In this document: piece by piece, positions 3,774 through 23,007 of the stretch
Numbering within the stretch: the stretch's first letter is position 1
How the letters are laid out: each line of letters begins with the position of its first letter
Assembly (NCBI GenBank): GCA_963828195.1
Contig: CAWHDT010000003.1
Location: 352,001 to 416,000 of the forward strand
From: Candidatus Bathyarchaeota archaeon
GTDB lineage: Archaea > Thermoproteota > Bathyarchaeia > Bathyarchaeales > Bathycorpusculaceae
Direction of reading: 5' to 3'
DNA: 64,000 nt
Position numbers and translations under genes: made by a program
Notes under the pieces: generated by a model
What the model was told of the DNA's origin: nothing
What the model saw: only the letters and a program-made list of their open reading frames with translations
Database searches by the model: none

Positions 3774-4487
3774 TTAAACAATGCTGAGTAACTCGTTGAG
3801 TCGCTGAATTGTGAAGTCTGGTTTAATTTTTCTTTTTCCTTTTTCATTTAATCTGCGTCTATCCATCAGCACCGTCACCATTCCACATTGATTTCCGCCT
3901 AAAATGTCTCGTTCCAAATTGTCGCCTACCACAACGGTTTCTGATGGGTCAGTTTTAAGTTGAACTGAGGCTTCTTTAAAGATTTTAGGGTCAGGTTTTT
4001 CCACGCCAACTTCTTCCGAAACAACAATTACGTCGAAGAATTCTCTAATTGCGAGTCTTAAAAGTATCTCATAGGTTGTGTCTGTCGATCCGTCTGTTAT
4101 GACTCCAAGTTTGTAACCCTTGGCTTTCAGAGCTGACAACGTTTGAATAACAGTTGAAGACGGCAAAATAATAGAAATTATGAAGTCGCGGTAAATGATG
4201 TGGGCGCTTTTTATGACCATCGGATCTGCTTTGATGCTTAACTCTTCAAAAAATTTTGAAAAGAAAAAATCATTTAAAAATAATCTGTCGGCATGTGGCT
4301 TAGCATATTTTTGGATTACTTTCTCAAAAAGCCTGTCAGCTTCATCAACATCCTTTATCGGTATGTTCTGGTCAATCAGTTTTTCAATCGTCATTCTGCG
4401 GGCGAAACACGTGTAGCTTGTAAGATCAAACAAAGTGTCCCCTAAATCGAACAGAATCGCCGAGATTTTAGTTTCTTGCTTTTTCAT
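3774..4487 (-). CDS. HAD-superfamily hydrolase
   Basis: FDLGDTL, EKPDPKIF and VGDNLERDI motifs. Confidence 0.9.
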   Translation of the reverse strand: MKKQETKISAILFDLGDTLFDLTSYTCFARRMTIEKLIDQNIPIKDVDEADRLFEKVIQKYAKPHADRLFLNDFFFSKFFEELSIKADPMVIKSAHIIYRDFIISIILPSSTVIQTLSALKAKGYKLGVITDGSTDTTYEILLRLAIREFFDVIVVSEEVGVEKPDPKIFKEASVQLKTDPSETVVVGDNLERDILGGNQCGMVTVLMDRRRLNEKGKRKIKPDFTIQRLNELLSIV

Positions 4488-5188
4488 ATTTTCTCAACTT
4501 TTTTGTGTAATTCGATGAATTCTGAAAGTTTTTGGCAAAGTAAGTCTTTATGCCAATACATCGCTGTTTTTTGGAACGACATGCTTCCTTCAATTTCGGC
4601 TTTTGCTTTTTTCCAAAAGAGAACTGAGAAGACCGCTGCTAACAAAATCTGTGCTAGATCAAGGTTTGAGTTCGGTTTATAAGATAGGAAATGGGAAAAG
4701 CTTGGACTTGAAATGGAAAGCGCAAGAAATAAAATATATCCAAGAAGTACAATGCTGCAGTTTGCGTACAGATAAAAAGTAGACGCATAAATTCTTTGTC
4801 GTTCCCTTACGGGCTCAGAAACCTCAGAGTAGGAAAAATTGCCCCAGAAATCGGCATAAAACTTGTTGGGTTTTAACGAGTTAAGGTTTGGATATTTATC
4901 CTTTTGAGCATTTGCGATTTTCAGCATCGTCTCGATTTTTTCATCTTCATTTATCGTCAGCATGCTGGCAAGTTTTGGCTTGAAAACAGGTATTTTCTTT
5001 TCTAGTCGCATTCCATATAGAGCTATGCCTAATCCTACTCCGCCGACTAATGCTAAAGCGATTCCTGTGTTGCCGGCAAATATTGAGGGATATAATGTGT
5101 ACACTAAGAAAAGTGCGAAATAGCCAGGGATCACTATTCTAAATGTTTCGTTAATGCTTTCTTGTCCAAGGCTTGGTAACTGCGCCAT
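4484..5188 (-). CDS. Multi-TM membrane protein of unknown function
   Basis: About four TM segments; 4-bp overlap with the HAD gene. Confidence 0.65.
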   Translation of the reverse strand: MAQLPSLGQESINETFRIVIPGYFALFLVYTLYPSIFAGNTGIALALVGGVGLGIALYGMRLEKKIPVFKPKLASMLTINEDEKIETMLKIANAQKDKYPNLNSLKPNKFYADFWGNFSYSEVSEPVRERQRIYASTFYLYANCSIVLLGYILFLALSISSPSFSHFLSYKPNSNLDLAQILLAAVFSVLFWKKAKAEIEGSMSFQKTAMYWHKDLLCQKLSEFIELHKKVEKI

Positions 5189-11289: not shown

Positions 11290-12374
11290 TCTTGAATTTC
11301 CTGCAACTTCTCGTTAAGAAAGACTTTTCCGAAAACAAGCCTCTTAGGCTTAGCTGAAACTGCGGTTTGAACTTTTAAGGCTCTTCTCACATGGTTAATT
11401 TCACGCAAAACTCCGATTCCTAAAAATTTGCTTTTAGAACCGTATAACCCCACAAGAAGTCCCTTCTCTGGCTCTTGATATTTTGGAAGAGCATATCTGG
11501 GTTCAATCGTCACATAACCTATTGGGTAGTTACGGAGCCTCGCGTTTTTCATATATCGTGCATAAGTCATTTCGCGTAGGCTTCTGCGTTTTTCGGCACT
11601 TCGTTGATTAAGAAAAGAAGAAGGCTCGACAATAATTGGTGGATTGTCATCTAAGTAAGCAATAAGAGACCTAAGTTCATCTTCAACTTGCACGGCGACT
11701 ATAACGTCTGGTTTTAGTTCTTTGATTAATTGCGTTTTGTAGCTTACAGCAATATCGCCTGTCACCCAGCCATCGGTATTAACTATCACAAAATCTACTG
11801 GCCTTTCTAAAATCTCAGCCTTCATAGCGGCTAAGCCTTCGACCGTTTTTGCTATTGCCATTATCGGTGAGGTAACGCCCATGAAAAAAGCGTTCTGAAG
11901 CTTCAAATTGTACAATTCTGTAATTGGCTTGGAAATTATCGCGTAACCCACAGTTCCTGAGGGTCCAATGTCTGATTGACCTAAATCGCCGTCTAAAAGA
12001 GCAACCCTGCATTTTCCGTCAACCAACTTATTTACTAAATAAGTGCAGTAGCTGCTTTTTCCAGAATCAATTTTTCCCAAAAGCAAAACAACAACTGGCT
12101 TCTTCTGCATACTCAAAATTGCTTCAAGAGGTGTATTCCATGACACTGGAATCGTGTTACCTTCAACTTCTTCAACGCATGCGTTTGGTCCTAACGAAAC
12201 GTCAAGAACCGTTTTTTCAAGAGCAAAAAATGGCAGACGCTTTCCTTCACGAACCAGGATTTTCACAGCTTGCTTTAATTGATAGCCGAACATTTCAGCC
12301 TTGCCAGAAACAACGCATACAGATGCGGGACCATCCACGAGCAATGTCTTATTGGATTCAACTGTTTGCTGCAA
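11286..12374 (-). CDS. Clp1/Grc3-family polynucleotide 5'-kinase
   Basis: GKIDSGKS, DGDLGQSDIGP and VNTDGWV motifs. Confidence 0.9.
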   Translation of the reverse strand: MQQTVESNKTLLVDGPASVCVVSGKAEMFGYQLKQAVKILVREGKRLPFFALEKTVLDVSLGPNACVEEVEGNTIPVSWNTPLEAILSMQKKPVVVLLLGKIDSGKSSYCTYLVNKLVDGKCRVALLDGDLGQSDIGPSGTVGYAIISKPITELYNLKLQNAFFMGVTSPIMAIAKTVEGLAAMKAEILERPVDFVIVNTDGWVTGDIAVSYKTQLIKELKPDVIVAVQVEDELRSLIAYLDDNPPIIVEPSSFLNQRSAEKRRSLREMTYARYMKNARLRNYPIGYVTIEPRYALPKYQEPEKGLLVGLYGSKSKFLGIGVLREINHVRRALKVQTAVSAKPKRLVFGKVFLNEKLQEIQD

Positions 12375-13008
12375 TCATTTTCCTCCTCCTTGGAAAAATA
12401 TAGCCTGTTCTTGCAGCAATCCGTATCGCTGAAGAAATATGCCTGATTCTTCGGCTACGCCTGTTATTTTTTAGGGGTAAGTTGGTTCCCGCCTCATTCA
12501 CAACTTCCAGCACGATGTCTGGTGGCAAAGCATCATCTAAGGCTTCAACTAAATCTTTGTAAACAGGAACACCATTCCCAATTTTTACGGAAACACTTGT
12601 CACTTTGGAATTAACAATTCTTATCGTTTTGATTATGCTGTTAATTACCTCTTGCGTGCTAAAGCAGTTATTTTCTTCGATAACTTTTCCATCGGCAATT
12701 GCTGCCAACCCAATCGCTGCACCTGGGTCAATGCCGATTGAGATTTTTTCGTAGGCTTCTTTTCCCTGAAGTATGCGCTTTACCTCGTTAACCAAATTGT
12801 CCAGTTCACTTTCGCTTGCTAAGATTAGTATGTTTTCATTTTTCACTAAATGCTTCTCACGCTCGGTTGTTATTACCGCTTTTACTTCTGCAGGCACAAA
12901 CTGTCCTGGAACTAAACTTATGAAGGGAACACCTTGCTCCCTCAGCCCGTTTACGATTAGAAAGTAAGCTTTACCCTCAACTGTGGCTACTGCAACTTTT
13001 TCCTTCAA
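12358..13008 (-). CDS. Conserved archaeal protein with RNase H-like (YqgF/RuvC-like) motif
   Basis: ISIGIDPG, VKIGNG, VNEAGT; overlaps the clp1 start. Confidence 0.65.
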   Translation of the reverse strand: MKEKVAVATVEGKAYFLIVNGLREQGVPFISLVPGQFVPAEVKAVITTEREKHLVKNENILILASESELDNLVNEVKRILQGKEAYEKISIGIDPGAAIGLAAIADGKVIEENNCFSTQEVINSIIKTIRIVNSKVTSVSVKIGNGVPVYKDLVEALDDALPPDIVLEVVNEAGTNLPLKNNRRSRRIRHISSAIRIAARTGYIFPRRRKMIAANS

Positions 13009-13093
13009 TAAATCAACCTTAATAGTATACGTTTAAGTGCAAAACACATTATTAGTTTCAAGTTTATAATCTTGACGCGAAAAAGGGTAAAAC

Positions 13094-13789
13094 ATGATTA
13101 CAATCAACACTGGGTCCCAATGTATCGACAGCAACATCGGCGGGGGCATTTCACCTGAAAGTGTCACTTTAATTTATGGCGAACCCGAAACTGGAAAAAC
13201 AACTTTAGCAATACAATGCACTGTTAGTTGTGCATTACAAAACTACAAAACACTCTTTGTAGACTGCGATAACACTTTCTCAACAAAAAGGCTCTCACAA
13301 CTCTCCGCTGATAAATTCGACCAAATCGCTGAACAAGTCATTTTAATTAAACCTAAGGATTTCCGTGAACAAATGGCAGTTATAGATTGCATTCAAGATT
13401 ACACATCAAAAAATTTCGGGCTAATAATAGTTGACACCTTCACATCTTTATACGGAGCAAAAGTTGCTGAGTCCTCTGGGAAAGCTTTCAGCGTTAACCG
13501 TGAATTAAACAGACAATTAGCAATATTGGCGCAAACAGCAAAAATCCGAAAAATCCCGGTTATTATCGTTAGTCAAGTGAGAAGCGTTTTTGATGACCCA
13601 AACGTCAGTGTCGCACCCGTTGCAAACAGAGTTTTAAAATTCTGGGCTGACACAATAATCGCCATGAAACCCATCGATTACCCCCAAACAATCAAAGTTA
13701 ACCTTGAAACACGGAGCAACAAGCAAGAAGTTACTTGTTATCTACAAATAGGTGAAACAGGAATAAAAGATACTGAATTCCGCGAATGA
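13094..13789 (+). CDS. radB: RadB-like RecA-family ATPase
   Basis: GEPETGKTT Walker A, IIVD Walker B, short length with no RadA N-terminal domain. Confidence 0.8.
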   Translation: MITINTGSQCIDSNIGGGISPESVTLIYGEPETGKTTLAIQCTVSCALQNYKTLFVDCDNTFSTKRLSQLSADKFDQIAEQVILIKPKDFREQMAVIDCIQDYTSKNFGLIIVDTFTSLYGAKVAESSGKAFSVNRELNRQLAILAQTAKIRKIPVIIVSQVRSVFDDPNVSVAPVANRVLKFWADTIIAMKPIDYPQTIKVNLETRSNKQEVTCYLQIGETGIKDTEFRE

Positions 13790-14295
13790 TGGTTGACCTC
13801 ATGGAAATAACCCAATTAATTGTTGAAGCGCTGAAATTTATTTTCCCAGCGTACTGCGCCAACGCCACTCCCGTGCTTGCCGGAGGAGGAACACGAATGG
13901 ATTTCGGAAAGAATTTCTTCGATGGAAAGCGAATCTTTGGAAACAACAAAACTTTCAGAGGCTTCTTCTTCGGCTTGGCAGTCGGCATACTTGTTGGGTT
14001 GATGGAGTGTGTTGTCTTCCGTTTTCCGATCTTATTTGCGGTGTTGATTCCTTTAGGAGCGCTGTTGGGCGATTTGACAGGGGCTTTTTTGAAGCGGCGG
14101 ATCGGAATTGCTCCTGGAGGTTTACTTCCTGTAATTGATCAAATTGACTTTGTAGTTGGAGCAGTCGTGTTTTCGGTTCCTTTAGCCATAATAAACTGGG
14201 AATTGGCAGTTACAGTTTTGCTTATTACTCCGCCTATTCACTTGTTCACTAATTTCTTAGCGTACAAAATGAAACTAAAAAGACACCCGTGGTAA
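13786..14295 (+). CDS. carS: CDP-archaeol synthase
   Basis: PAYCANATP, FGNNKTFRG, GDLTGAFLKRR and DQID motifs. Confidence 0.92.
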   Translation: MMVDLMEITQLIVEALKFIFPAYCANATPVLAGGGTRMDFGKNFFDGKRIFGNNKTFRGFFFGLAVGILVGLMECVVFRFPILFAVLIPLGALLGDLTGAFLKRRIGIAPGGLLPVIDQIDFVVGAVVFSVPLAIINWELAVTVLLITPPIHLFTNFLAYKMKLKRHPW

Positions 14296-14332
14296 AAAGA
14301 AAAAAACTATAGAAAAAAGGAAAAAAGCTGGG

Positions 14333-14758
14333 TCAAGCTCCGCCAGACGTCTTGAAGGCGATTGCGCCTTCTAAGAATATGTACGAAATGAGTAGAAATG
14401 CTACGCCAATGATTAGCATCAGGTAGGCTTGCCTTGGGTTATATGCATTTTTGGTGCTTTGGTAAATGGCAAACAGTCCAAGGAAACCAAAGCCATAAAG
14501 TATTACCGCGATCACGGTGTCAGATATGAATTGTGAACTAATACTTGGATAGAGGAAATAGAAGTTATTGTTAACGTAGGCTGATGGAAGAGGACGCGTA
14601 ATAAGAGTAAACAAGCCACCGCCGAAAAGAAAGATGCAGTAACCAATTCCTACAATGGTTATTAAGAGTGATGAAGGTGTAGTTGTTGAAATTCTGTGGA
14701 ACCAGCGGCTCATCGAAAAGGACATGTTCGACGTGCGCTTCTTTAGTTTATTTGACAT
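14333..14758 (-). CDS. OST3/OST6/OSTC(DC2)-like oligosaccharyltransferase accessory subunit
   Basis: Three TM helices with FLFGGGLFTLITRP...FLYPSISSQFISD...GFLGL pattern resembling recalled eukaryotic OSTC. Confidence 0.6.
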   Translation of the reverse strand: MSNKLKKRTSNMSFSMSRWFHRISTTTPSSLLITIVGIGYCIFLFGGGLFTLITRPLPSAYVNNNFYFLYPSISSQFISDTVIAVILYGFGFLGLFAIYQSTKNAYNPRQAYLMLIIGVAFLLISYIFLEGAIAFKTSGGA

Positions 14759-14907
14759 TGTATTCTCTCCCTTTAATCAGTGTTTTTACTACATCTTTAG
14801 CCCATTATCAGGTTAATGAATTTTTCTGATTCCCAACTAAAAAAACAATCCAAATCCTGCCAGAAGCGTCCTTTCTTAGCTCACCCAACCAAGTTAAGTC
14901 ATTTTCC

Positions 14908-16980
14908 TCAGTTGCAAGTTCCTTTTGAGGGGCAATCGGGATTCAGGCATGATTTCCAAGTCCTTTTCCCTTTCATGTATATACGCAACATTGGGTACCC
15001 ACAATTTTTGCAAGTGACTTTTAGGGGTTTTACTCCGCCAGTTTGAGGCAGCGGAAATGTCACGTTGCATTTTCCTTTGAAATAGTTTGTGCAGCCGACA
15101 AAACGTTTACCTGTTTTTTTGGAACGTAAAATAACTAGTTTTCCATCAGCACACTTTGGGCATGCACCAACTGTTCTTTCTTCAAGACGACCTTTATTCA
15201 AAGCTTGGCTAATTTGAATTCCTATAATGGACTCTTTTTCCTTAAGCTCAGCTAAAACTGGTTTCAAGATTTTAACAGCATTTTGCACCACAACTTCTCT
15301 TGTTTCTTTGCCTTGCTGAATTTCATTCATCTTCTCTTCAAGCTTTCTAGTTAGTTCAGGTGAGATAACAGCTGGACAATACTTTGATAGGATTTCGATG
15401 ACTTCAACGCCAAGGTCAGAAACCGCGAGACTCTTGGTTCCGTTTAGATATTTTCGGGCATACAACGTTTGTATGGTTGCTGCCCTCGTTGCTTTAGTGC
15501 CGATTTCCTCATTTTCCATTTTTAAAAGTAAAGTGCGAGGGTTGTATCTAGCAGGCGGTCTCGTAAAATTGTTTTTCACAGTTACTCTTTTAACTGAGAC
15601 TTTTTGTCCCCGAATTAAGTTGGGCAAAGCTACGTCATTCAGTTGGGCATAAGGTTTGTAAAATTGAAGCCACCCGTCACTTAGCGTTCGAACGCCATTT
15701 AAACGAAAAAGGTTCCCGCAGATACTAATATCTGCTTTCGTCCTTTGGCGGATGGCAGGCTCAGCGAAAACGGATAGGAACCTGCGAACAATAAGATCGA
15801 AAACGTTTCTTTCGCTTGCGCCAAGAGGTTTTTCTGGAAGGTTTCCAGTCGGGTAAATGGCTGGATGCGCAGAATCGGCTTTTTCCCCTTCATTGGGCTT
15901 CAAAACTGGCTGAGCGAGCAAGTAAGATGCAAATTTCTCGCAACCGGGCAGTTTAGTTAGTTTTCTTAATATGTTTCGGTAGTCGATTGTGGGCGGGAGT
16001 TTTTGGCTGCTTGTTCTGGGATACGAGATTAATGCATCCAAGTACAGGTGCTGAGCTATGTTTGAAGTACGAATCGGCATAAAGTGGAAATTTCTGTAAG
16101 CTTCACTTTGTAAAGTTCCCAAGTCAAAAGGCACCGGAGGTTTCTGCTCAAACTCTTCCACAACTGTCGTTTCTATTTGACCTTCTTTGCTTTTGCAGGC
16201 GTCTTTTACTGCCGTTGCTTCTTGGCTGCTTCTGAGGATTTTTTCATATTCAGCTTCGTATGTTGTGTCGTTTATGATTATTTTTGCGGTTATGCTCCAG
16301 AAAGGAGTGGGAACGAAACACTTTATGGTTTTTTCTCGATCTTCTAAAAATTTAAGGGTTGGCCCTTGTACTCAACCGGTGCTCAGTGTAGCGTATTGTC
16401 CGCTGCTTCTTTTCACAGCCATTGTTAAGGCTCTAGACAGGTTTATTCCGTAAAGCCAATCTACCTCATGCCTTGTCAATCCAGCTTCTACAAGAGCAAA
16501 ATCCAAATGCGGCAACAAGTGAGCGTAAGATTGCTGCAGTTCCTCTTTTGTAAGTGTAGAGTATTTCATGCGTTTAGCGGTTTTTTCTTTGCTGCCGCAA
16601 GCATACCTAAGTATGCAGTACCCTATGATGCTGCCTTCAATGTCAAAGTCGCATGCATCCACAAACTCCTCAGCGTTTTCTGCTAACTTTGCAATTACGT
16701 TTAACCAAACACGGATCTTCGATGCACTCCGTTCAGCAAGGTACCTTGGAACCCATTGATAGTCGAAAACTGGATAATCACGTTTAATTTTTTCTTTACT
16801 TGCAACGGTGTAAAGATGCCCAAGGGATGGCACAACAACGACATCGCTCTCTCTGTATGCTTTATAGTATGGAACGCCGTTCTCAACTATTTTTTGAGCT
16901 TTTCCATCTGCGTCCAAAGCCATAGCTATTCTTTTGGCGGCATCGGGTTTTTCAGTTACAATTAATGTGTACTTCCCCAA
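14908..16980 (-). pseudogene. topA: DNA topoisomerase IA (TopA/Topo III) interrupted by one in-frame TGA
   Basis: TOPRIM (EKPDAA, DFDIEG), LSTG*VQGPTL, catalytic ISYPRT and C-terminal Zn ribbons; both ORF pieces share a frame, stop at 16372-16374; may be a base-call error. Confidence 0.85.
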
Positions 16981-17278: not shown

Positions 17279-17559
17279 ATAAAGTCGCTCCAAAGCTTCG
17301 ATAACTGATCCTGCAAGAGAGCATTAGAAAAGCGACTTAGCGAGAGTATTACAAAAGTAAGTTTATGCTTTGTCTGCCCAAAACAGGGTTCAAAGCTAAA
17401 AATTCTTTTAATATTCTACATTGACTTTTTTGGCCTAACTGGATTTTTTGTTGATTTTAGCTTATTTCGGTTAAAAAATATCTATATAGTTTAGCTATTG
17501 GGTTATATTGCAATATATTTAAATTACTTTAATCACCAAACTATGTTAGTTCATTTTGG

Positions 17560-17583
17560 GGTTCTGGTAACTTCATGGGTGAT
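17560..17583 (+). repeat. Left terminal inverted repeat
   Basis: GGTTCTGGTAACTTCATGGGTGAT. Confidence 0.9.
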
Positions 17584-17703
17584 AAATCTACCTGTTAAGA
17601 ATCGGGTGATAAATCCGCTGTTTTCTGTCTCTCGGAAAAGACCTGTTAATCTTCGGGTGATGACAAGGCTTAAGTCAAGAATCACATAATAAACGATTGG
17701 GGA

Positions 17704-18126
17704 ATGAAAGAACTGTCTCAAAATATTGGAGAGAAAGCGGTTAATTATGTCTTAAATTATCTTAAAGAAACAGAGCACAAAGAAGCAAGGCGATGCAAAA
17801 AAGGCAAGAATGGTGAAGGTGCAGACATAATTTCTGCCGAAGGCAAATACATTGAAGTCAAAGGATGCGACAAAAAAGAAACCAATTTGCGAATTGCACG
17901 ACAATCATTAGAAAAGATTTCTAAAGCAGGTAAACTAAAACAAGATTCTTACTTCATCTACTATGTTTACAACATGGAGAAAGAACCCACTTTAATGATA
18001 TTCGATTATGACACTTATAACAAGAACAAATTTGAAGAGACCAAATTATTAATACAACCGTTTAAAATTGAGAAAGAAACGGGCAAACCTGAGAGAATAA
18101 AACTAAAGAAGATGACTAGCTCATAA
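17704..18126 (+). CDS. Stand-alone PD-(D/E)XK nuclease (DUF3883/NOV-C-like), transposon cargo
   Basis: GEKAV...GADII...YIEVKG catalytic pattern. Confidence 0.7.
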   Translation: MKELSQNIGEKAVNYVLNYLKETEHKEARRCKKGKNGEGADIISAEGKYIEVKGCDKKETNLRIARQSLEKISKAGKLKQDSYFIYYVYNMEKEPTLMIFDYDTYNKNKFEETKLLIQPFKIEKETGKPERIKLKKMTSS

Positions 18127-19252
18127 ATTTTTTGCTCGCATTTTCTATGATGGTTTTCCACTTGTCATTTCCTTCAATGATTATTCCGCAAGCCTCGGCG
18201 GGAGTTTTGCCGTCTAACGCCTCATGAGGTCGAACATAATTATGATAAAGCTGATAGCCCTTGAGAGTAGCCGTATCGTCTTTCTTTAAGCCTCTCATGA
18301 CTTTTTCACGGTCTCTTACCTCGCCGTTCATGCGCTCCATCTTGTTATTGTTCATATCACCTCTTAGTTTTATGGCGTTAATATGCTCTGTTCTTGGAGC
18401 TTTTATGGTAAAAAACTCTTTTTTGTAAGCGTCATGATAAGCTGGAAGACCATCGGTTATGAAGGTCATGGGCTTTTTACCCATCAGTTCCTTAGACATT
18501 CTGAGTAGGTTGCGTGCGTCATGCTTATCTTTTGATTGCGCTACCTCTTGAGCAATCCAAAACCGTGTCTCATCATCCATCATAGCAAACAGATACTTCA
18601 TGTTGCCATTGATTTTAACGTATAACTCATCGGCTCTCCAAGTGTCACTAACGTTAGGCTTCATCTTCTCAAGATAATCAGTCATTAAAGCCGTGTACTT
18701 TGTTATCCACTTCAAAATTGAAACATGACTAATGGTTACGCCTTGTAGCTTTAGGAATTTCTGAACGTTCCTTAGTGACTCACCTGTGAAGTACAGTTGC
18801 ATCGCAGAGGTTATGACTTGAGGCGAAGCTTTCATATTCTCAAAACCAACATTGACGCTAAAGCGTTTGCCACATGCCTTGCACTTGTACCGCTGAAGAT
18901 CATACTTTTTGTTGTGGCGAACGGCATCTTTCACTATTTCTTCAGAGCCACAGTAAACGCATTTTGAAGTGTTCAAGGGCTGAATAACTACGTTGCGTTT
19001 GACTTGCTCCTTCATTTTGATGCTTACTTCTACCGCCACAATGTGCTTGCATTTTAAGTGTCGATAGGTGTGGTCTGGACATTCACAGTGCCATTCACCA
19101 TCAACCTGAAAAATCGCATACTCGCCATTTCCAGATTGTGATTTTACGGTGTAAAAGTTCTCTTCTATACTGATAACTTGACTCTCTTTGGATTGAGCAA
19201 TTACTAATCCTCTTTCTTCACGGACTTTTTCAAGTGTTTCAAGGCTCATCAT
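18116..19252 (-). CDS. IS6-family DDE transposase with N-terminal SWIM finger and Zn ribbon
   Basis: SWIM CECPDH..CKH; CVYC...CKAC; HTH SLRNVQ; WRADE, ITDG and NNNKMERMN catalytic triad. Confidence 0.92.
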   Translation of the reverse strand: MMSLETLEKVREERGLVIAQSKESQVISIEENFYTVKSQSGNGEYAIFQVDGEWHCECPDHTYRHLKCKHIVAVEVSIKMKEQVKRNVVIQPLNTSKCVYCGSEEIVKDAVRHNKKYDLQRYKCKACGKRFSVNVGFENMKASPQVITSAMQLYFTGESLRNVQKFLKLQGVTISHVSILKWITKYTALMTDYLEKMKPNVSDTWRADELYVKINGNMKYLFAMMDDETRFWIAQEVAQSKDKHDARNLLRMSKELMGKKPMTFITDGLPAYHDAYKKEFFTIKAPRTEHINAIKLRGDMNNNKMERMNGEVRDREKVMRGLKKDDTATLKGYQLYHNYVRPHEALDGKTPAEACGIIIEGNDKWKTIIENASKKFMS

Positions 19253-19280
19253 ATTATATTACCTTCTTGTTTACCCACAA

Positions 19281-19396
19281 TATTACCATATGTCTTACTA
19301 ACTTATAAACATGATGGTAATACGGTAGGTAAACTAAACAAACTTTAAGGTAAACTTATATACCACAATCAAGCCATTTACCATATTGAAGGTAAA
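19281..19396. promoter_or_regulatory. Divergent promoter/operator between transposase and AbrB-like gene
   Basis: Inverted repeat TATTACCAT (19281-19289)/ATGGTAATA (19314-19322) around TTATAAA; AGGTAAA at 19327, 19348 and 19390. Confidence 0.5.
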
Positions 19397-19400
19397 TAAG

Positions 19401-19625
19401 ATGGGCGAATTAACTACCCTTTCAGTAGCAACATCAAAAAAAGAATCTCTCAGAACAACCGTTCCAATGAGTATCCTAAAGCAGTTCAAACTATGTTCAG
19501 GTGATAAACTTGAATGGGAACTAGAAGCACGAAATAACGAATTGATTATTCTAGTAAAACCTGTTAAAAATTCAGAGTCCAAAGTGAACTCTGATTCTAA
19601 AAATTCCACTGAAAATATACGTTAG
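19401..19625 (+). CDS. AbrB/MazE/SpoVT-type DNA-binding protein
   Basis: SLRTTVPMSILKQFKLCSGDKLEW swapped-hairpin signature; ATG at 19401 preferred over TTG at 19386. Confidence 0.85.
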   Translation: MGELTTLSVATSKKESLRTTVPMSILKQFKLCSGDKLEWELEARNNELIILVKPVKNSESKVNSDSKNSTENIR

Positions 19626-19713
19626 TAATTGCCGTAAAACCTTTGAAAAAAGAAAAGTAGTAGAAGAACATATATAGAACTAATAAAAACCCGAAAGGAA
19701 AAATGTAAAAGAA

Positions 19714-21600
19714 ATGAGTCAATTTACCCGCCCCTTAGAATCTGCAACGAGAAAAGAGATAGACTTAGTTCTAAATAGCCTCGGATGGATTACTGACGAA
19801 ACAAAACCAACTTGCAACGTTTTTACTGAAAGAGCAAAAACACTAAATCAAAATGCTAGCTTCAAGGGGAATAATCCTGACTATGTTCTTTATAAATCAG
19901 GCACAGAAGACGACCCAATAGCAATTATTGAAGCGAAAAGGAAAGGTCAAAGTTTAGAAAAGGCTTTAGAACAAGCGATAGAAAAATATGCAAAACCGCT
20001 TGGTGTTTCCTTAGTTTTTGTTTACGATGCCACTTTTATAAGAACATTTGATTTAAGAAGTAAAAAGGAACTTACAATAGATGGAAATAGCTTAAAGCAG
20101 TTAGTTTCCGAAGCAAAACTGCTTCGTTTTCTGAAAACAGGTTCAAATATTGACGAAACTGCCCCTGAAGTAAAACACACTAGAGAAGAATTAATACGAA
20201 TTTTTAAATGGGTGGAAGAACTTCTAAGGCAAGAAGGTTTAAGAAACCTTGACAGGTTTGTTGAGTTTTCTAACTTATTATTCATAAAAATCATAAGCGA
20301 AATCGAAGACGACCGAGAAAAGAAAGGATTGCCTAGACGGTTAGCTAAAGACATATGTTGGGATAGCTTCTGTGATGAAAAAGACCCCAAAAAAATGCTC
20401 AACTACATTAACGATACTGTATTGAAGCAAGGTCTAGCTAAAGAGTATAATCATACTGACGATATTTTCCAAGAGAAATTAAAAATCCAAAATCCCCAAA
20501 CAGTTAAAGAAATAGTAAATAAACTATCCACCTTAACCCTACTCAACACTGAATCAGAGATTAAGGGTGATGCATTTGAGTATTTCCTAAAAAGCATAGC
20601 ATCTGGAAACGATTTAGGCGAATACTTCACCCCACGACATATCGTAAAGCTAATTGTGTCTTTGGTTAACCCAAAGTACGGAAACACCGTTTTAGACCCA
20701 TTTTGTGGAACAGGTGGATTTTTAATCGAAGCGTTTAGGCACCTAAAATCAAACGTAGACGAAAAAGACGAAAACATAGTGAAAGCACTAAAAGAAAAAA
20801 CCATTTTTGGGATTGAACTAACAGACACTTACAAAATAGCAAAAATGAATATGATAATCACTGGTGATGGGCACAACAACATAGTACAAGATGACGCTGC
20901 TAAAAACATTTTTTGGGACAAAATTATCGGTAGTTATAAAGAAAAAGACATAATCGAGGCTTTACAGGTCATAAAAGCTAAGGGGTTCGATGTAGTTTTC
21001 TCAAATATTCCCTATGGGCAACCAACAATTTTCGGAAATACTTATCCCATCCCATCAAATCAGGGCGATAGTGTCTTCATTCAATTCATAATTAAAATGT
21101 TAGGAAAAGATGGGCGATGCGGAGTGATAGTTCCAGAAGGATTACTATTCAGGTCGGAACACAAGAGTTTAAGAGAATATTTGATGCAAGAATGCGACTT
21201 AGAAGCTATCATTTCGTTGCCAAGCGGAGTGTTTTATCCCTATGCAGGTGTAAAAACAGACATTCTAATCTTTAAAAAGGGTAACTCAACTGAAAAAGTT
21301 TGGTTTTACAACGTAGAAAATGATGGATTTGAGCTATCTGCTAAAAGGAAAAAAATTCCAAAAGATGATTTGCCCGATGTTTTAGCCAAATTTCCATTGA
21401 GAGAAAACTCCGCTAAAAGTTTTAGTGTCCTGAAAAAAACTATAGAAAATAACGAGTTTAGACTCAATTTAACAAGTTACATTGAGAATAAAACAGGGGA
21501 ATTGACTTTCAAGTCTCCAATGCAAGTACTTGACGAAATCAATAAAATAGAACTAGAAATCAATAAAGAACTTGAAGTCTTAAACAAGATGATGCAATGA
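19714..21600 (+). CDS. Fused restriction endonuclease-N6 DNA methyltransferase (HsdR_N-like + HsdM-like; type IIB/IIG-like)
   Basis: N-terminal PDYVL...IIEAK nuclease; GEYFTPR, DPFCGTGGF motif I, SNIPYG motif IV variant. Confidence 0.88.
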   Translation: MSQFTRPLESATRKEIDLVLNSLGWITDETKPTCNVFTERAKTLNQNASFKGNNPDYVLYKSGTEDDPIAIIEAKRKGQSLEKALEQAIEKYAKPLGVSLVFVYDATFIRTFDLRSKKELTIDGNSLKQLVSEAKLLRFLKTGSNIDETAPEVKHTREELIRIFKWVEELLRQEGLRNLDRFVEFSNLLFIKIISEIEDDREKKGLPRRLAKDICWDSFCDEKDPKKMLNYINDTVLKQGLAKEYNHTDDIFQEKLKIQNPQTVKEIVNKLSTLTLLNTESEIKGDAFEYFLKSIASGNDLGEYFTPRHIVKLIVSLVNPKYGNTVLDPFCGTGGFLIEAFRHLKSNVDEKDENIVKALKEKTIFGIELTDTYKIAKMNMIITGDGHNNIVQDDAAKNIFWDKIIGSYKEKDIIEALQVIKAKGFDVVFSNIPYGQPTIFGNTYPIPSNQGDSVFIQFIIKMLGKDGRCGVIVPEGLLFRSEHKSLREYLMQECDLEAIISLPSGVFYPYAGVKTDILIFKKGNSTEKVWFYNVENDGFELSAKRKKIPKDDLPDVLAKFPLRENSAKSFSVLKKTIENNEFRLNLTSYIENKTGELTFKSPMQVLDEINKIELEINKELEVLNKMMQ

Positions 21601-22772
21601 CTGACTTTGTAGGAATCATTGACGTATGCGAAATTAATCCATCAAAAAAAATAGCAAAACTAAACACAAACGAGCAAGTTAGTTTTGTAGAAATGTCCTC
21701 AGTCTCCGAAGATGGCAAAATAATCAACGAGCAAACGTGTCTCTTGAAAAATGTAGCGAAAGGTTTTACATATTTTGTCAAAGGCGACATAATCTTAGCC
21801 AAAATAACCCCTTGTTTTGAAAATGGAAAGAGAGCATATGTCAATAACATAAAGAACACAATTGGGTTTGGAAGCACTGAATTTCTCGTTTTACGACCTA
21901 ACGAAAAGATTGTACCTGAATACCTATATTATATGGTTAGCAGAAAAAAGTTTAGAGAAGATTTAACGCCTCTATTGGTTGGAACCGCAGGTCAAAAAAG
22001 GTTACATAAAGACGTTTTAGCAAATTATCTAATTCCTCTTCCATCTAAGCAGAAACAATTTGATATAGTCAACAAGCTAAAACAGATTGAAAAAATAAAG
22101 AAGTTAAGGATTACACAAAATGAGGCTTTTGACGAATTGATAAAAAGTAAGTTTTTGGCTTTGTTTGGAAACCCCTCGCAAAGTGATTTTTCACTTGTGG
22201 AGCTTCGTACCGTTGCTAAGTTGAATATGGGTGGAACACCATCAACCCAAAAACCTGAGTATTATGTTAATGGTGACATTAATTGGATGAAGTCGGGAGA
22301 CATTAAGTCCGATTTTGTCAAGATTATTCCGAACAAAATAACTAAGTTAGGATTAAAAAATTCCAATGCTAAAATGTATTCTATCGGTGACGTGGTTATC
22401 GCTTTAAACGGACAGGGTAAAACCAGAGCGACAACTGGAATTTTGAAGATAGAAACTGCAAGCAATCAGTCAGTAGCTTCAATATCTCCAAATTTGGATG
22501 TATTGCTTCCCGATTATTTGCATTTTGATTTGAAATATAGGTATCAAGAACTACGAAATTTAACGGGTGATAAGCAAAGAAGTGGTCTCAATTTGAATAT
22601 ATTGAGACAATTGGAAATTCCCTTGCCTCCACGGGAATTACAAAGTCAATTTGGCGATTTTGTAAGACAAGTGGAAATTATGAGAGAAAAACAAAATTCT
22701 TCTAAGATTGAAGCTGAACAACTATTTGAATCCGTTTTGAATGAACTATATGTTCCCAACGTTTCAAATTGA
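21597..22772 (+). CDS. Restriction-modification specificity (S) subunit with two TRDs
   Basis: KITPCFENGK/GSTEF TRD, GGTPST second TRD, IPLPP..Q conserved helices; ATGA overlap with the RM gene. Confidence 0.9.
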   Translation: MTDFVGIIDVCEINPSKKIAKLNTNEQVSFVEMSSVSEDGKIINEQTCLLKNVAKGFTYFVKGDIILAKITPCFENGKRAYVNNIKNTIGFGSTEFLVLRPNEKIVPEYLYYMVSRKKFREDLTPLLVGTAGQKRLHKDVLANYLIPLPSKQKQFDIVNKLKQIEKIKKLRITQNEAFDELIKSKFLALFGNPSQSDFSLVELRTVAKLNMGGTPSTQKPEYYVNGDINWMKSGDIKSDFVKIIPNKITKLGLKNSNAKMYSIGDVVIALNGQGKTRATTGILKIETASNQSVASISPNLDVLLPDYLHFDLKYRYQELRNLTGDKQRSGLNLNILRQLEIPLPPRELQSQFGDFVRQVEIMREKQNSSKIEAEQLFESVLNELYVPNVSN

Positions 22773-22910
22773 AAAGCATTTTATCTTGTTAAGAAATTGA
22801 AATTTAACTACTATTTTTTCTAATCCAAGATTTTATCACTCTGTCACCCGTTTATTTACATGTACATTTCAAAGGCTTAATCCGTCACCCGAAAACTAAC
22901 AGAGAAAACC

Positions 22911-22934
22911 ATCGCCTATGAAGTTAACAGAACC
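22911..22934 (-). repeat. Right terminal inverted repeat
   Basis: Reverse complement GGTTCTGTTAACTTCATAGGCGAT. Confidence 0.9.
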
Positions 22935-23007
22935 CATTTTGGAAAGCCATAAATAAACCTCCAATGTGTATAAATTAAGAATTAACCGATAAAGATACAA
23001 TTAACAC

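Follow-up and report, generated by a model that had tools for sequence, protein, structure and literature searches.

The window, that is, the whole stretch of 64,000 nucleotides that was analysed, contains an element of 5375 bp (positions 17560-22934), bounded by 24-bp terminal inverted repeats (TIRs). It is very probably an intact autonomous unit transposon of the IS6 superfamily, a 'transporter IS' in the terms of ISfinder, composed of a core module, formed by the transposase gene and a divergently transcribed AbrB/MazE-like gene, and a cargo of restriction-modification (RM) and NOV_C genes. The attributes of a unit transposon are all present: one transposase gene, one pair of TIRs enclosing passenger genes, and a target-site duplication (TSD) outside them. 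The coordinates of the features are listed in Table 1.

The left and right TIRs differ at 3 of 24 positions (21/24 identical), both tips read GGTTCTG(G/T)TAAC, and an exact copy of the 8-bp sequence CATTTTGG adjoins each end. Accordingly, the repeats, the length enclosed, the duplication and the location just upstream of aglB are as given in the original prediction. A degenerate TIR pattern (up to 3 mismatches) matched the two TIRs and nothing else in the 64-kb window, the interior of the element included; this and the presence of one transposase gene support the proposed single-transposase structure. The proposed gene content, namely, transposase, AbrB-like protein, nuclease-methylase fusion, S subunit and second nuclease, was also found, the AbrB-like gene being refined to the reading frame in Table 1.

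Table 1. Features of the element and its flanks (positions in the window).
Feature	Position	Strand	Remarks
TSD, left copy, 8 bp	17552..17559	.	CATTTTGG; read from sequence; single-copy at empty site
TIR, left	17560..17583	+	GGTTCTGGTAACTTCATGGGTGAT; transposase 3' side; contains putative terminal binding site 1, CTGGTAA-N6-GGGTGAT
Site 2, left	17592..17610	+	CTGTTAAGAATCGGGTGAT; direct repeat of terminal site; position 33 from tip
Site 3, left	17643..17661	+	CTGTTAATCTTCGGGTGAT; position 84
NOV_C (PF13020) nuclease-like protein, 140 aa	17704..18126	+	42.1 bits, cutoff 22.1
Transposase, 378 aa	18116..19252	-	SWIM finger, zinc ribbon and IS6-type DDE core; profile searches, alignment
Predicted AbrB/MazE-like small DNA-binding protein, 74 aa	19401..19625	+	divergent from transposase gene
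Nuclease-methylase fusion, 628 aa	19714..21600	+	N-terminal PD-(D/E)XK nuclease (HSDR_N) and N6-adenine methyltransferase
Specificity (S) subunit, 391 aa	21597..22772	+	two target-recognition domains; Methylase_S matches in two stretches
Site 3, right	22843..22862	-	CATGTAAATAAACGGGTGAC on - strand; read from sequence
Site 2, right	22884..22902	-	CTGTTAGTTTTCGGGTGAC on - strand; position 33 from tip
TIR, right	22911..22934	-	transposase 5' side; reverse complement reads GGTTCTGTTAACTTCATAGGCGAT
TSD, right copy, 8 bp	22935..22942	.	CATTTTGG; 66 bp upstream of aglB start
aglB	start 23008		beyond the right end of the element

Transposase and the family of related elements

The transposase combines a SWIM finger (residues C56, C58, C68 and H70), a zinc ribbon (C98, C101, C124 and C127) and a DDE core, the triad of which, judging from the alignment and the motifs of IS6 transposases, is presumably D208, D267 and E306. 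The NCBIfam model of IS6 transposases, NF033587, matched residues 137-340 with 127.8 bits, a narrow margin over the cutoff of 125; PF13610 (DDE_Tnp_IS240) gave 63.8 bits (cutoff 27), and the SWIM profile 21.9 bits (cutoff 19.6). Across 29 sequences, all of the DDE, SWIM and zinc-ribbon residues are invariant but one, C98, which at least 90% of them share. Annotated IS6 transposases are 25-31% identical to the protein over an aligned part that leaves out the SWIM region, and the best matches among them are long clostridial members (28-31% identity over residues 96-366). Sequence searches of solved structures yielded no match to the transposase at E<=0.01, and an AlphaFold2 model built from the 29-sequence alignment was discarded (mean pLDDT 60.9, catalytic core modelled as helices). 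Seven full-length paralogues of the transposase are encoded in the same genome.

The family is represented by 5529 protein hits. In genome contigs, 254 transposase loci were confirmed by tblastn, and 80 were kept for delimitation by TIRs and a perfect 8-bp duplication. Forty of these, together with four copies from the genome of the element itself, form the delimited set of 44 elements. The end detector requires identical first 6 nt at both ends and misses elements such as the sister element E3; 40 of the 80 loci were not delimited, including 13 with full 10-kb flanks. Because half of the loci escaped delimitation, the observed sizes (2153-9197 bp, median 3674) are those of a sample. All 44 elements have a duplication matching at 8/8 positions, one transposase each and further ORFs, from 1 to about 9 per element. 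No bare IS was found (0/44), nor was a homologous transposase with ends directly beside the gene on both sides (0/44), the layout opposed to the predicted one.

The hosts of the 44 elements are Bathyarchaeia, Methanoperedens, Methanoregula, Nitrososphaeria and an Asgard genome. Across several archaeal phyla, elements of this kind recur in which a single transposase and GGTTCTG... ends are combined with an 8-bp duplication and a cargo that varies. The sister element E3 occurs twice in the genome under study, as 2434-bp copies that are 100% identical, occupy different sites and are flanked by different duplications; these copies show it to have been recently active.

Several loci are in assemblies with bacterial labels: L029 and L058 are labelled Limnocylindrales, L064 Saccharibacteria and L062 Gammaproteobacteria. 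These labels were not accepted as evidence of bacterial hosts; the flanks of L029 encode MptA and beta-RFA-P synthase.

Of the 44 elements, 11 carry genes of restriction or modification: 9 have methylase or RM genes, and 2 have restriction of the GmrSD type. Among 300 genomes of the class, two of the three closest homologues of the nuclease-methylase of the element adjoin a transposase of the same family. The proposal that the transposon 'spreads defence cargo' holds with respect to carriage, while restriction, methylation and defence activity are predicted from domains. There is about an even chance that the elements represent a separate, archaea-wide family of autonomous transposons with cargo, characterized by a SWIM/zinc-ribbon/IS6-like DDE transposase, a divergent AbrB/RHH gene and multi-site ends, and a major vehicle for RM and other defence genes in archaea of soil, peat and sediment. 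In function, such a family would be to archaea what Tn7-like or Tn3 carriers of defence genes are to bacteria.

Multi-site ends, divergent gene and cargo

Besides the terminal site, further putative transposase-binding sites were found at both ends of the element (Table 1). In the delimited family members, an element-specific subterminal site at position 33 or 43 is present in 62 of 88 ends (59 of 63 sites lie within 1 nt of these positions), versus a mean of 4.0 and a maximum of 8 of 88 ends in the control with a foreign second half-site. When 18-mers of the terminal and subterminal sites were aligned without gaps, the match was barely higher than in shuffles (10.41 vs 9.88 of 18), owing to a 1-nt difference in spacing between the copies, which the test with two half-sites resolved. 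The family consensus over the 88 ends is GGTTCTGTnAAgTct.

The transposase would bind a bipartite site, of which each end has two to three copies, made up of CTGTNAA, 4-6 nt and a half that is specific to the element; it would pair both ends and insert the element with a stagger of 8 bp. As with IS6/IS26, transposition may proceed via a replicative cointegrate, resolved by host recombination. A serious, if tentative, alternative is that the same anatomy serves non-replicative cut-and-paste or copy-out transposition, the multi-site ends forming a paired-end complex similar to those of Mu and Tn7. This is suggested by the two to three putative sites per end, as opposed to the short terminal repeats, the only ones in the available text of both IS6 reviews (Varani et al. 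2021; Harmer and Hall 2019), and by the rule of single copies with clean duplications; a lone copy with no second one nearby would require efficient resolution of cointegrates. The catalytic core, on the other hand, best matches IS6 profiles, the two identical copies of E3 in one genome fit copying, and the contigs examined, which would rarely show such structures, contained no excision footprint or circular junction. These points count against the alternative; the data as a whole are compatible with replicative as well as with cut-and-paste movement.

The gene divergent from the transposase gene encodes a protein whose best Pfam match is MazE_antitoxin (PF04014, 20.4 bits, under the cutoff of 24.7, E 4.9e-4); among its counterparts, those of L029 (28.3) and L036 (32.1) score above this cutoff and that of L034 (22.3) below. 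A 91-aa ORF on the opposite strand (19334-19609) was rejected as an antisense shadow of this gene. An AbrB-like HMM gave matches in 21 of the 44 elements, in 20 of which the gene lies immediately upstream of the transposase gene and is read divergently, and most of the other 23 have, by reading of the sequences, an RHH-like or AbrB-like small ORF at the same position. A scan of the divergent spacer, 19253-19400, for sigma-70-type promoters, ill-suited to archaea, gave no sites, and between 17000 and 23500 no Rfam family reached its gathering score.

The probable role of the small AbrB/RHH-type protein is to control the divergent promoter region. It is rather improbable that the AbrB/MazE-like or RHH-like gene is instead the antitoxin half of an addiction module stabilising the element, as its top Pfam match and the Panacea, HEPN or RM cargo of other family members, which can also serve as addiction modules, might suggest. 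No conserved toxin gene adjoins it, and its constant partner in 20 elements is the divergent transposase gene. Moreover, this position is occupied by unrelated folds, AbrB-like in some elements and RHH-like in others, which fits promoter binding.

The RM cargo is on one side of the core module and the NOV_C gene on the other; a similar NOV_C gene (132 aa) is cargo of the element at L066. In the nuclease-methylase fusion, HSDR_N covers residues 51-95 and N6_Mtase residues 282-594, and PD...EAK, DPFCGTGGF and NIPY can be recognised as motifs. No ORF for a helicase or HsdR motor was found within the element. The A subunit of BcgI-type systems is a PD-(D/E)XK nuclease fused to an N6-adenine methylase; enzymes of this type cut DNA to either side of a bipartite site and introduce m6A. 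Judging from the sequence, the RM cargo is BcgI-like, of type IIB architecture, with which it shares the nuclease-methylase fusion, a separate type-I-like two-domain S subunit and the absence of HsdR, a likeness in architecture. This cargo may protect the host or addict it to the element, and retention would then be favoured.

Insertion into the topA-aglB spacer

The empty site that the original prediction expected upstream of aglB was found in related genomes and in a metagenome. Nine loci of congeners were compared by blastn, of which five were informative and the other four matched the right-flank query only. In these five, the topA-aglB spacer contains a single CATTTTGG between conserved flanks, and exactly the 5375 bp plus one 8-mer are absent. 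In the soil metagenome run X1, a contig of 331 nt joins position 17551 to 22935 with 8 letters shared, which corresponds to the empty site, while seven other contigs match the element with 0 differences (100% identity). No RNA run was listed as containing the element. Since the empty sites hold a single CATTTTGG, the entire 5375 bp entered the spacer as one piece, duplicating 8 bp, as had been proposed. None of the relatives listed has the RM genes at this locus.

The insertion upstream of aglB is recent. The 5375-bp copy is unique in its genome, and therefore present-day activity of the element itself cannot be claimed. The interpretation of the 'empty' sites as deletion scars is unlikely because they contain exactly one copy of the 8-mer. 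Transfer of the RM genes as chromosomal or plasmid DNA by flanking IS, in an IS26-style pseudo-compound transposon or translocatable unit of which the second repeat is a remnant, is the way in which classical IS6 members move cargo, according to the available text of the 2021 review. For this element it is highly improbable: there is one transposase gene and no third TIR copy in the window (up to 3 mismatches), the full three-site architecture is present at both ends, what is missing from the empty site is precisely the DNA from one repeat to the other, and the single-transposase layout is common to 44 relatives. Chance origin of the TIRs and duplication around a resident RM island, in favour of which only the AT-rich context speaks, is refuted for practical purposes by the empty sites in five congeners and one metagenome contig and by the absence of any match to the TIR pattern in 100 shuffled sequences.

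Comparison with known systems

No published description of this cargo-transposon family was found in the literature searched, and it is apparently undescribed. Passenger-gene transposons were not detected in archaea according to the available text of a 2019 survey of thaumarchaeal mobile elements. Cargo DNA transposons are central to bacterial gene flow, and their documentation in archaea is sparse. The element is a cleanly bounded, recently inserted case with empty-site proof, belonging to a multi-phylum family that repeatedly carries RM genes and is a possible route for defence genes between uncultured archaea. The natural ends and the transposase of the family are a candidate genetic tool for archaea. 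The family is also a test case of how an IS6 core became a larger transposon by adding a SWIM finger, multi-site ends and a regulator.

Tn7-like and Mu-like elements, the former frequently with variable defence cargo, have several transposase-binding repeats per end; they encode TnsABC or MuAB proteins, produce 5-bp duplications and possess target selectors. None of these proteins, 5-bp duplications or selectors is present in the element described here. Aloposons of Heimdallarchaeia were considered and set aside as unrelated because of the integration into tRNA genes and the giant genes reported in the available text. In the accessible supplements of the Atabeyarchaeia paper, 'IS6' gave rows of IS605 only; its Table S1 of IS-like elements may list the element at L066.

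Members of the IS6 family in ISfinder have GG tips, G at position 7 and a cTGTt motif (Varani et al. 2021), with terminal repeats of 15-20 bp or somewhat longer (Varani et al. 2021; Harmer and Hall 2019); in the available review text, archaeal members measure about 700-750 in the length units used there, and short bacterial members 789-880 bp. The element shares with them a profile-matching DDE transposase, the GG-type TIR motif and the 8-bp duplication. It lacks their compactness, being 5375 bp long with four further genes (the smallest of the 44 relatives has 2153 bp), and its transposase of 378 aa, with SWIM finger and zinc ribbon before the core, does not correspond to IS6 transposases of 220-250 aa with HTH and DDE only. 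The designation 'IS6-type' is thus valid in the broad ISfinder sense; the size and additional domains of the transposase, its identity of 25-31% and the extra subterminal sites speak against a narrower one.

The long clostridial IS6 members (ISCpe7-like; clade h of Varani et al. 2021, clades VII-VIII of Harmer and Hall 2019) share an N-terminal zinc-finger extension before the HTH and DDE core, and among the extra domains the resemblance is limited to this zinc finger. SWIM, a word that does not occur in either review, is a feature of the element described here. As far as the available text of the reviews extends, clade h has transposase genes of 1230-1460 bp and no reported passenger gene, unlike the present family; it is bacterial, not archaeal, and no divergent AbrB/RHH gene or subterminal repeats are described for it. 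ISDsp3 of Dehalococcoides, the only IS6 member with a passenger gene in the available text of the 2021 review, similarly has cargo within a single-transposase unit, but, compared by description only, it is a single bacterial case with one hypothetical gene, versus a widespread family. Units of IS26 and IS257 share with the element the DDE core (about 25% identity to IS257), GG...CTGT ends, the 8-bp duplication and the movement of adaptive cargo; their cargo lies between two directly repeated IS, whereas here it is inside one pair of TIRs with a single transposase.

One-piece insertion between topA and aglB

The inverted repeats of the 5375-bp cargo transposon in the topA–aglB spacer are identical at 21 of 24 positions, and each is directly bordered on its outer side by an 8-bp duplication, which reproduces in the window sequence the ends, length and duplication of the original prediction. 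A degenerate repeat pattern with up to three mismatches matched the window twice, at the two ends of the element (shuffles, 0/100). The start of aglB lies 66 bp past the right duplication. The G+C content of the restriction-modification (RM) cargo (window 19500–23000) is 0.34–0.35 vs. 0.42–0.46 in the flanking genes and 0.44 genome-wide, a composition that fits acquisition from elsewhere.

An 8.5-kb region was searched against 60 congeneric genomes and the window's own genome. The two flanks match as neighbouring pieces overlapping by exactly 8 bases in several congeners. Nine loci were compared for the empty site expected in relatives, with both flank queries matched in five and the right-flank query alone in four; conserved flanks joined via a single CATTTTGG were found in the former five, L020–L024 (genomes G004, G019, G047, G016 and G062). 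No RM genes at the topA–aglB locus of congeners were present among the matches listed, to which 84 weaker matches do not belong. Contigs of the soil metagenome run X1 include seven pieces that match the element without a single difference, as well as a 331-nt contig joining position 17551 to 22935, which skips 5383 bases with 8 letters shared. Two flank positions of this junction contig differ from the window, and it therefore probably represents a closely related strain without the insertion, not an excision product. Element pieces with no or almost no differences were also found in three more runs from other studies; in metagenome run X2, where flanks are divergent, the empty junction is present on one contig. 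The single 8-mer in five congener loci and in the X1 contig shows that the element entered as one piece with an 8-bp duplication, and this insertion, together with the presence of one transposase, supports the proposed single-transposase unit transposon.

The neighbouring gene topA contains a single in-frame TGA (16372–16374) in place of the conserved Arg codon of its STGRVQGP motif, which is AGA in six fetched relatives (L020, L021, L022, L024, L025 and L026); possible explanations are a nonsense mutation, read-through of the codon and an error in the assembly.

Gene content and transposase

The predicted gene set, namely, a transposase, an AbrB-like gene, a fused nuclease-methylase, an S subunit and a second nuclease, was borne out by ORFs and profiles. 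A 91-aa ORF opposite the AbrB/MazE-like gene was rejected as an antisense shadow; its ‘homologues’ in other elements likewise lie antisense to the actual gene. No gene of an HsdR-type motor was found among the ORFs of the element; a nuclease-methylase fusion and S subunit without such a motor are the architecture of BcgI-type (type IIB) systems.

Features of the element, its neighbour topA and related elements of the same genome
Feature	Position	Strand	Description
topA	14908–16980	-	
8-bp duplication	17552–17559 and 22935–22942		CATTTTGG
Left repeat	17560–17583		GGTTCTGGTAACTTCATGGGTGAT, read from the window sequence
140-aa protein	17704–18126	+	NOV_C match (PF13020, 42.1 bits)
Transposase	18116–19252	-	378 aa, profile matches
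AbrB/MazE-like protein	19401–19625	+	74 aa
Nuclease-methylase fusion	19714–21600	+	628 aa; HSDR_N-type PD-(D/E)XK nuclease domain (PD...EAK) and N6-adenine methylase (DPFCGTGGF, NIPY)
S subunit	21597–22772	+	391 aa, two recognition domains
Right repeat	22911–22934		Reverse complement GGTTCTGTTAACTTCATAGGCGAT
Own-genome element	C4:105826–109934		4109 bp
Own-genome element	C5:545557–551607		6051 bp
Own-genome element	C8:160229–164069		3841 bp
Sister element E3, two copies	C1:296460–298893 and C6:18214–20647		2434 bp, 100% identical (L015, L016)

The transposase scores just above the cutoff of the NCBIfam IS6 model (127.8 bits, cutoff 125, residues 137–340) and clearly above that of PF13610; it also contains a SWIM match (residues 52–75, 21.9 bits vs. 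cutoff 19.6) and matches to transposase-type zinc-binding domains (residues 97–132). In alignments of 6 and 29 family members, the SWIM residues C56, C58, C68 and H70 (CxC...CxH), the zinc-ribbon cysteines C101, C124 and C127, and residues D208, D267 and E306, taken from the alignments to be the DDE triad, are invariant; zinc-ribbon C98 is invariant among the 6 and retained in at least 90% of the 29. Among 72,556 plasmid records, the nearest annotated relatives are ISCpe7-like IS6 transposases of clostridia (28–31% identity, residues 96–366), identity to IS257 is about 25%, and some transposases of the family already carry the NCBI label ‘IS6 family transposase’.

Copies, ends and cargo across the family

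The window's genome encodes 7 full-length transposase paralogues (59–68% identity), and inverted repeats with duplications delimited four complete elements, the studied one and those on C4, C5 and C8, each with a perfect 8-bp duplication. E3, a fifth type with ends GGAACTGTAAAG / GGTTCTGTAAAG, consists of an AbrB-like gene, a transposase and one 271-aa ORF. Its two identical copies have different duplications, CTCTCTCT and TCGAACAG, which shows very recent movement of the family in this genome. In the 6051-bp element, the transposase (C5:549103–550488, L012:4547–5932) is extended at its C terminus by about 85 aa, which are absent from the other five own-genome paralogues aligned. A solo end at C5:22237–23714 (L014), with 39 of the first 40 nt identical to the left end of the element, is directly followed by a second GGTTCTG-type end and lies about 1.3 kb from a decayed transposase C-terminal remnant with stops; this arrangement suggests the remains of a close relative.

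With one genome scanned for each prokaryotic species, 254 confirmed transposase loci were obtained; protein searches gave 5529 hits at E ≤ 0.001, including more distant IS6 relatives. The best 80 of the 254 loci, kept for study, are from Bathyarchaeia, Methanoperedens, Methanoregula, Nitrososphaeria and Asgard archaea by record title. A repeat of at least 16/24 with a duplication delimited 40 of the 80, every chosen pair having an 8/8 duplication; of the other 40, 13 have full flanks, and the rest have less than 10 kb on one or both sides, many being short contigs. Adding the four own-genome copies brings the total to 44 elements of 2153–9197 bp (median 3674), each with one transposase locus (split into two ORFs in L071). 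The original prediction would fail if related transposases had ends without cargo; no bare IS was found among the 44, all of which contain further ORFs, and RM or methylase genes recur in the cargo. Cargo can be located on one side of the core or the other: L089 has only the AbrB-like gene on the 5' side and cargo 3', while many other elements have a transposase ORF that extends into the 3' repeat, with cargo 5'.

Record L029 is labelled Limnocylindrales bacterium, and its flanking genes (4165–4944, 11706–15636) match MptA and beta-RFA-P synthase of methanopterin biosynthesis; judging by these genes, the contig is probably archaeal and the label a binning artefact. Records L058, L062 and L064 also have bacterial labels; the flank check covered L029. 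Tandem insertions at L037:1448–7545 and L036:7530–11654 contain the same 8-mer three times, alternating with elements A and B (the first copy in L036 is off by 1/8 bases; element A of L037 is 2529 bp, with inverted ends identical over 60 nt), which suggests reuse of the target beside a resident end.

An HMM of the AbrB-like protein matched in 21 of the 44 elements, in 20 of them just upstream of the transposase gene on the opposite strand. Most of the other 23 have an ORF of 43–78 aa in the same place, RHH-like or of another AbrB type by reading of the sequences; among these, Pfam gave MazE/AbrB above cutoff for two and RHH_6 weakly for one (E 0.0014, 19.6 bits, below cutoff 27). A conserved ORF of about 65 aa (…AKAIDRSLKAP…SAPNRFDLPTVD…) occurs in L031, L034, L067, L072, L076 and L107, in most cases close to an end of the element and at times as part of a longer fusion protein; the L107 copy, the sole member scanned, had no Pfam match.

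The terminal site is bipartite, with CTGTNAA separated by a spacer from an element-specific half. Of 88 ends, 62 contain a further copy that matches both halves of the same element, nearly all at position 33 or 43 (within 1 nt), vs. a mean of 4.0 and a maximum of 8 in the control with the second half from an unrelated element; this covariation with the element's own half-site argues for a real binding site. The studied element has three copies at the left end (positions 5, 33 and 84) and three at the right (5, 33 and 74, read from sequence).

Cargo of the 40 foreign elements was scanned with Pfam (ORFs of at least 95 aa, 105 proteins, E ≤ 1e-4), and most cargo ORFs had no Pfam match. DNA methylase genes are present in 9/44 elements (the window's element, L029, L050, L052, L056, L063, L064, L069 and L090), six with a recognisable nuclease partner or domain. 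Other cargo includes GmrSD-type restriction genes (L049, L086), HEPN (L067), NOV_C (L066), Panacea domains (L069, weakly the C5 copy), a TATA-binding protein gene (L063:2964–3521) and proteasome-subunit-like proteins (L036:8852–9736, L050:4354–5103, L065:8826–9710).

In a quick maximum-likelihood tree built from 43 transposases, with SH-aLRT as the sole support measure, methylase-bearing elements occupy five separate places. The window's element is sister to L029 (support 100), sharing its repeats and a transposase 85% identical; the cargo of L029, a split nuclease and methylase, has no DNA similarity to that of the element. Another clade (support 99) comprises four elements, all with RM genes of differing types. 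The nuclease-methylase is rare: a search of 300 other genomes of the class gave three full-length homologues (53–55% identity), two of which adjoin a transposase or transposase fragment of the same family. Accordingly, RM genes seem to be exchanged among elements and also retained for long stretches of time.

Proposed mechanism and comparison with IS6

At the sequence level, the catalytic residues are intact, the multi-site ends conserved and the sister element recently copied. The transposase would recognise the repeated bipartite sites, probably contacted by the zinc ribbon and HTH, pair the ends and make 8-bp staggered joins. By analogy with the IS6 family, movement may be replicative, with resolution of a cointegrate; a cut-and-paste pathway is a possible alternative. 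The small protein probably controls divergent promoters, and the RM cargo probably either helps the host or makes the element more stable.

Two IS6 reviews (Varani et al. 2021; Harmer and Hall 2019) describe transposases of 220–250 aa, one clostridial clade with a zinc-finger extension, repeats of 15–20 bp with GG tips and cTGTt, and a single member with a passenger gene, ISDsp3; ‘SWIM’ has 0 occurrences in each. IS6-like cargo transposons with a SWIM domain were not found described for archaea in the literature covered, which excludes most subscription journals and ISfinder, so that an earlier description may exist; a 2019 survey states that passenger-gene transposons had not been detected in archaea. 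The finding is real, the first reading of the element is supported, and the element is of moderate to high interest for specialists in mobile elements and archaeal defence. It resembles IS6 in its profile match, GG...CTGT ends and 8-bp duplication, but has neither the compact size nor the simple transposase of that family, and, unlike the IS26 pseudo-compound transposon, it works like a unit transposon.
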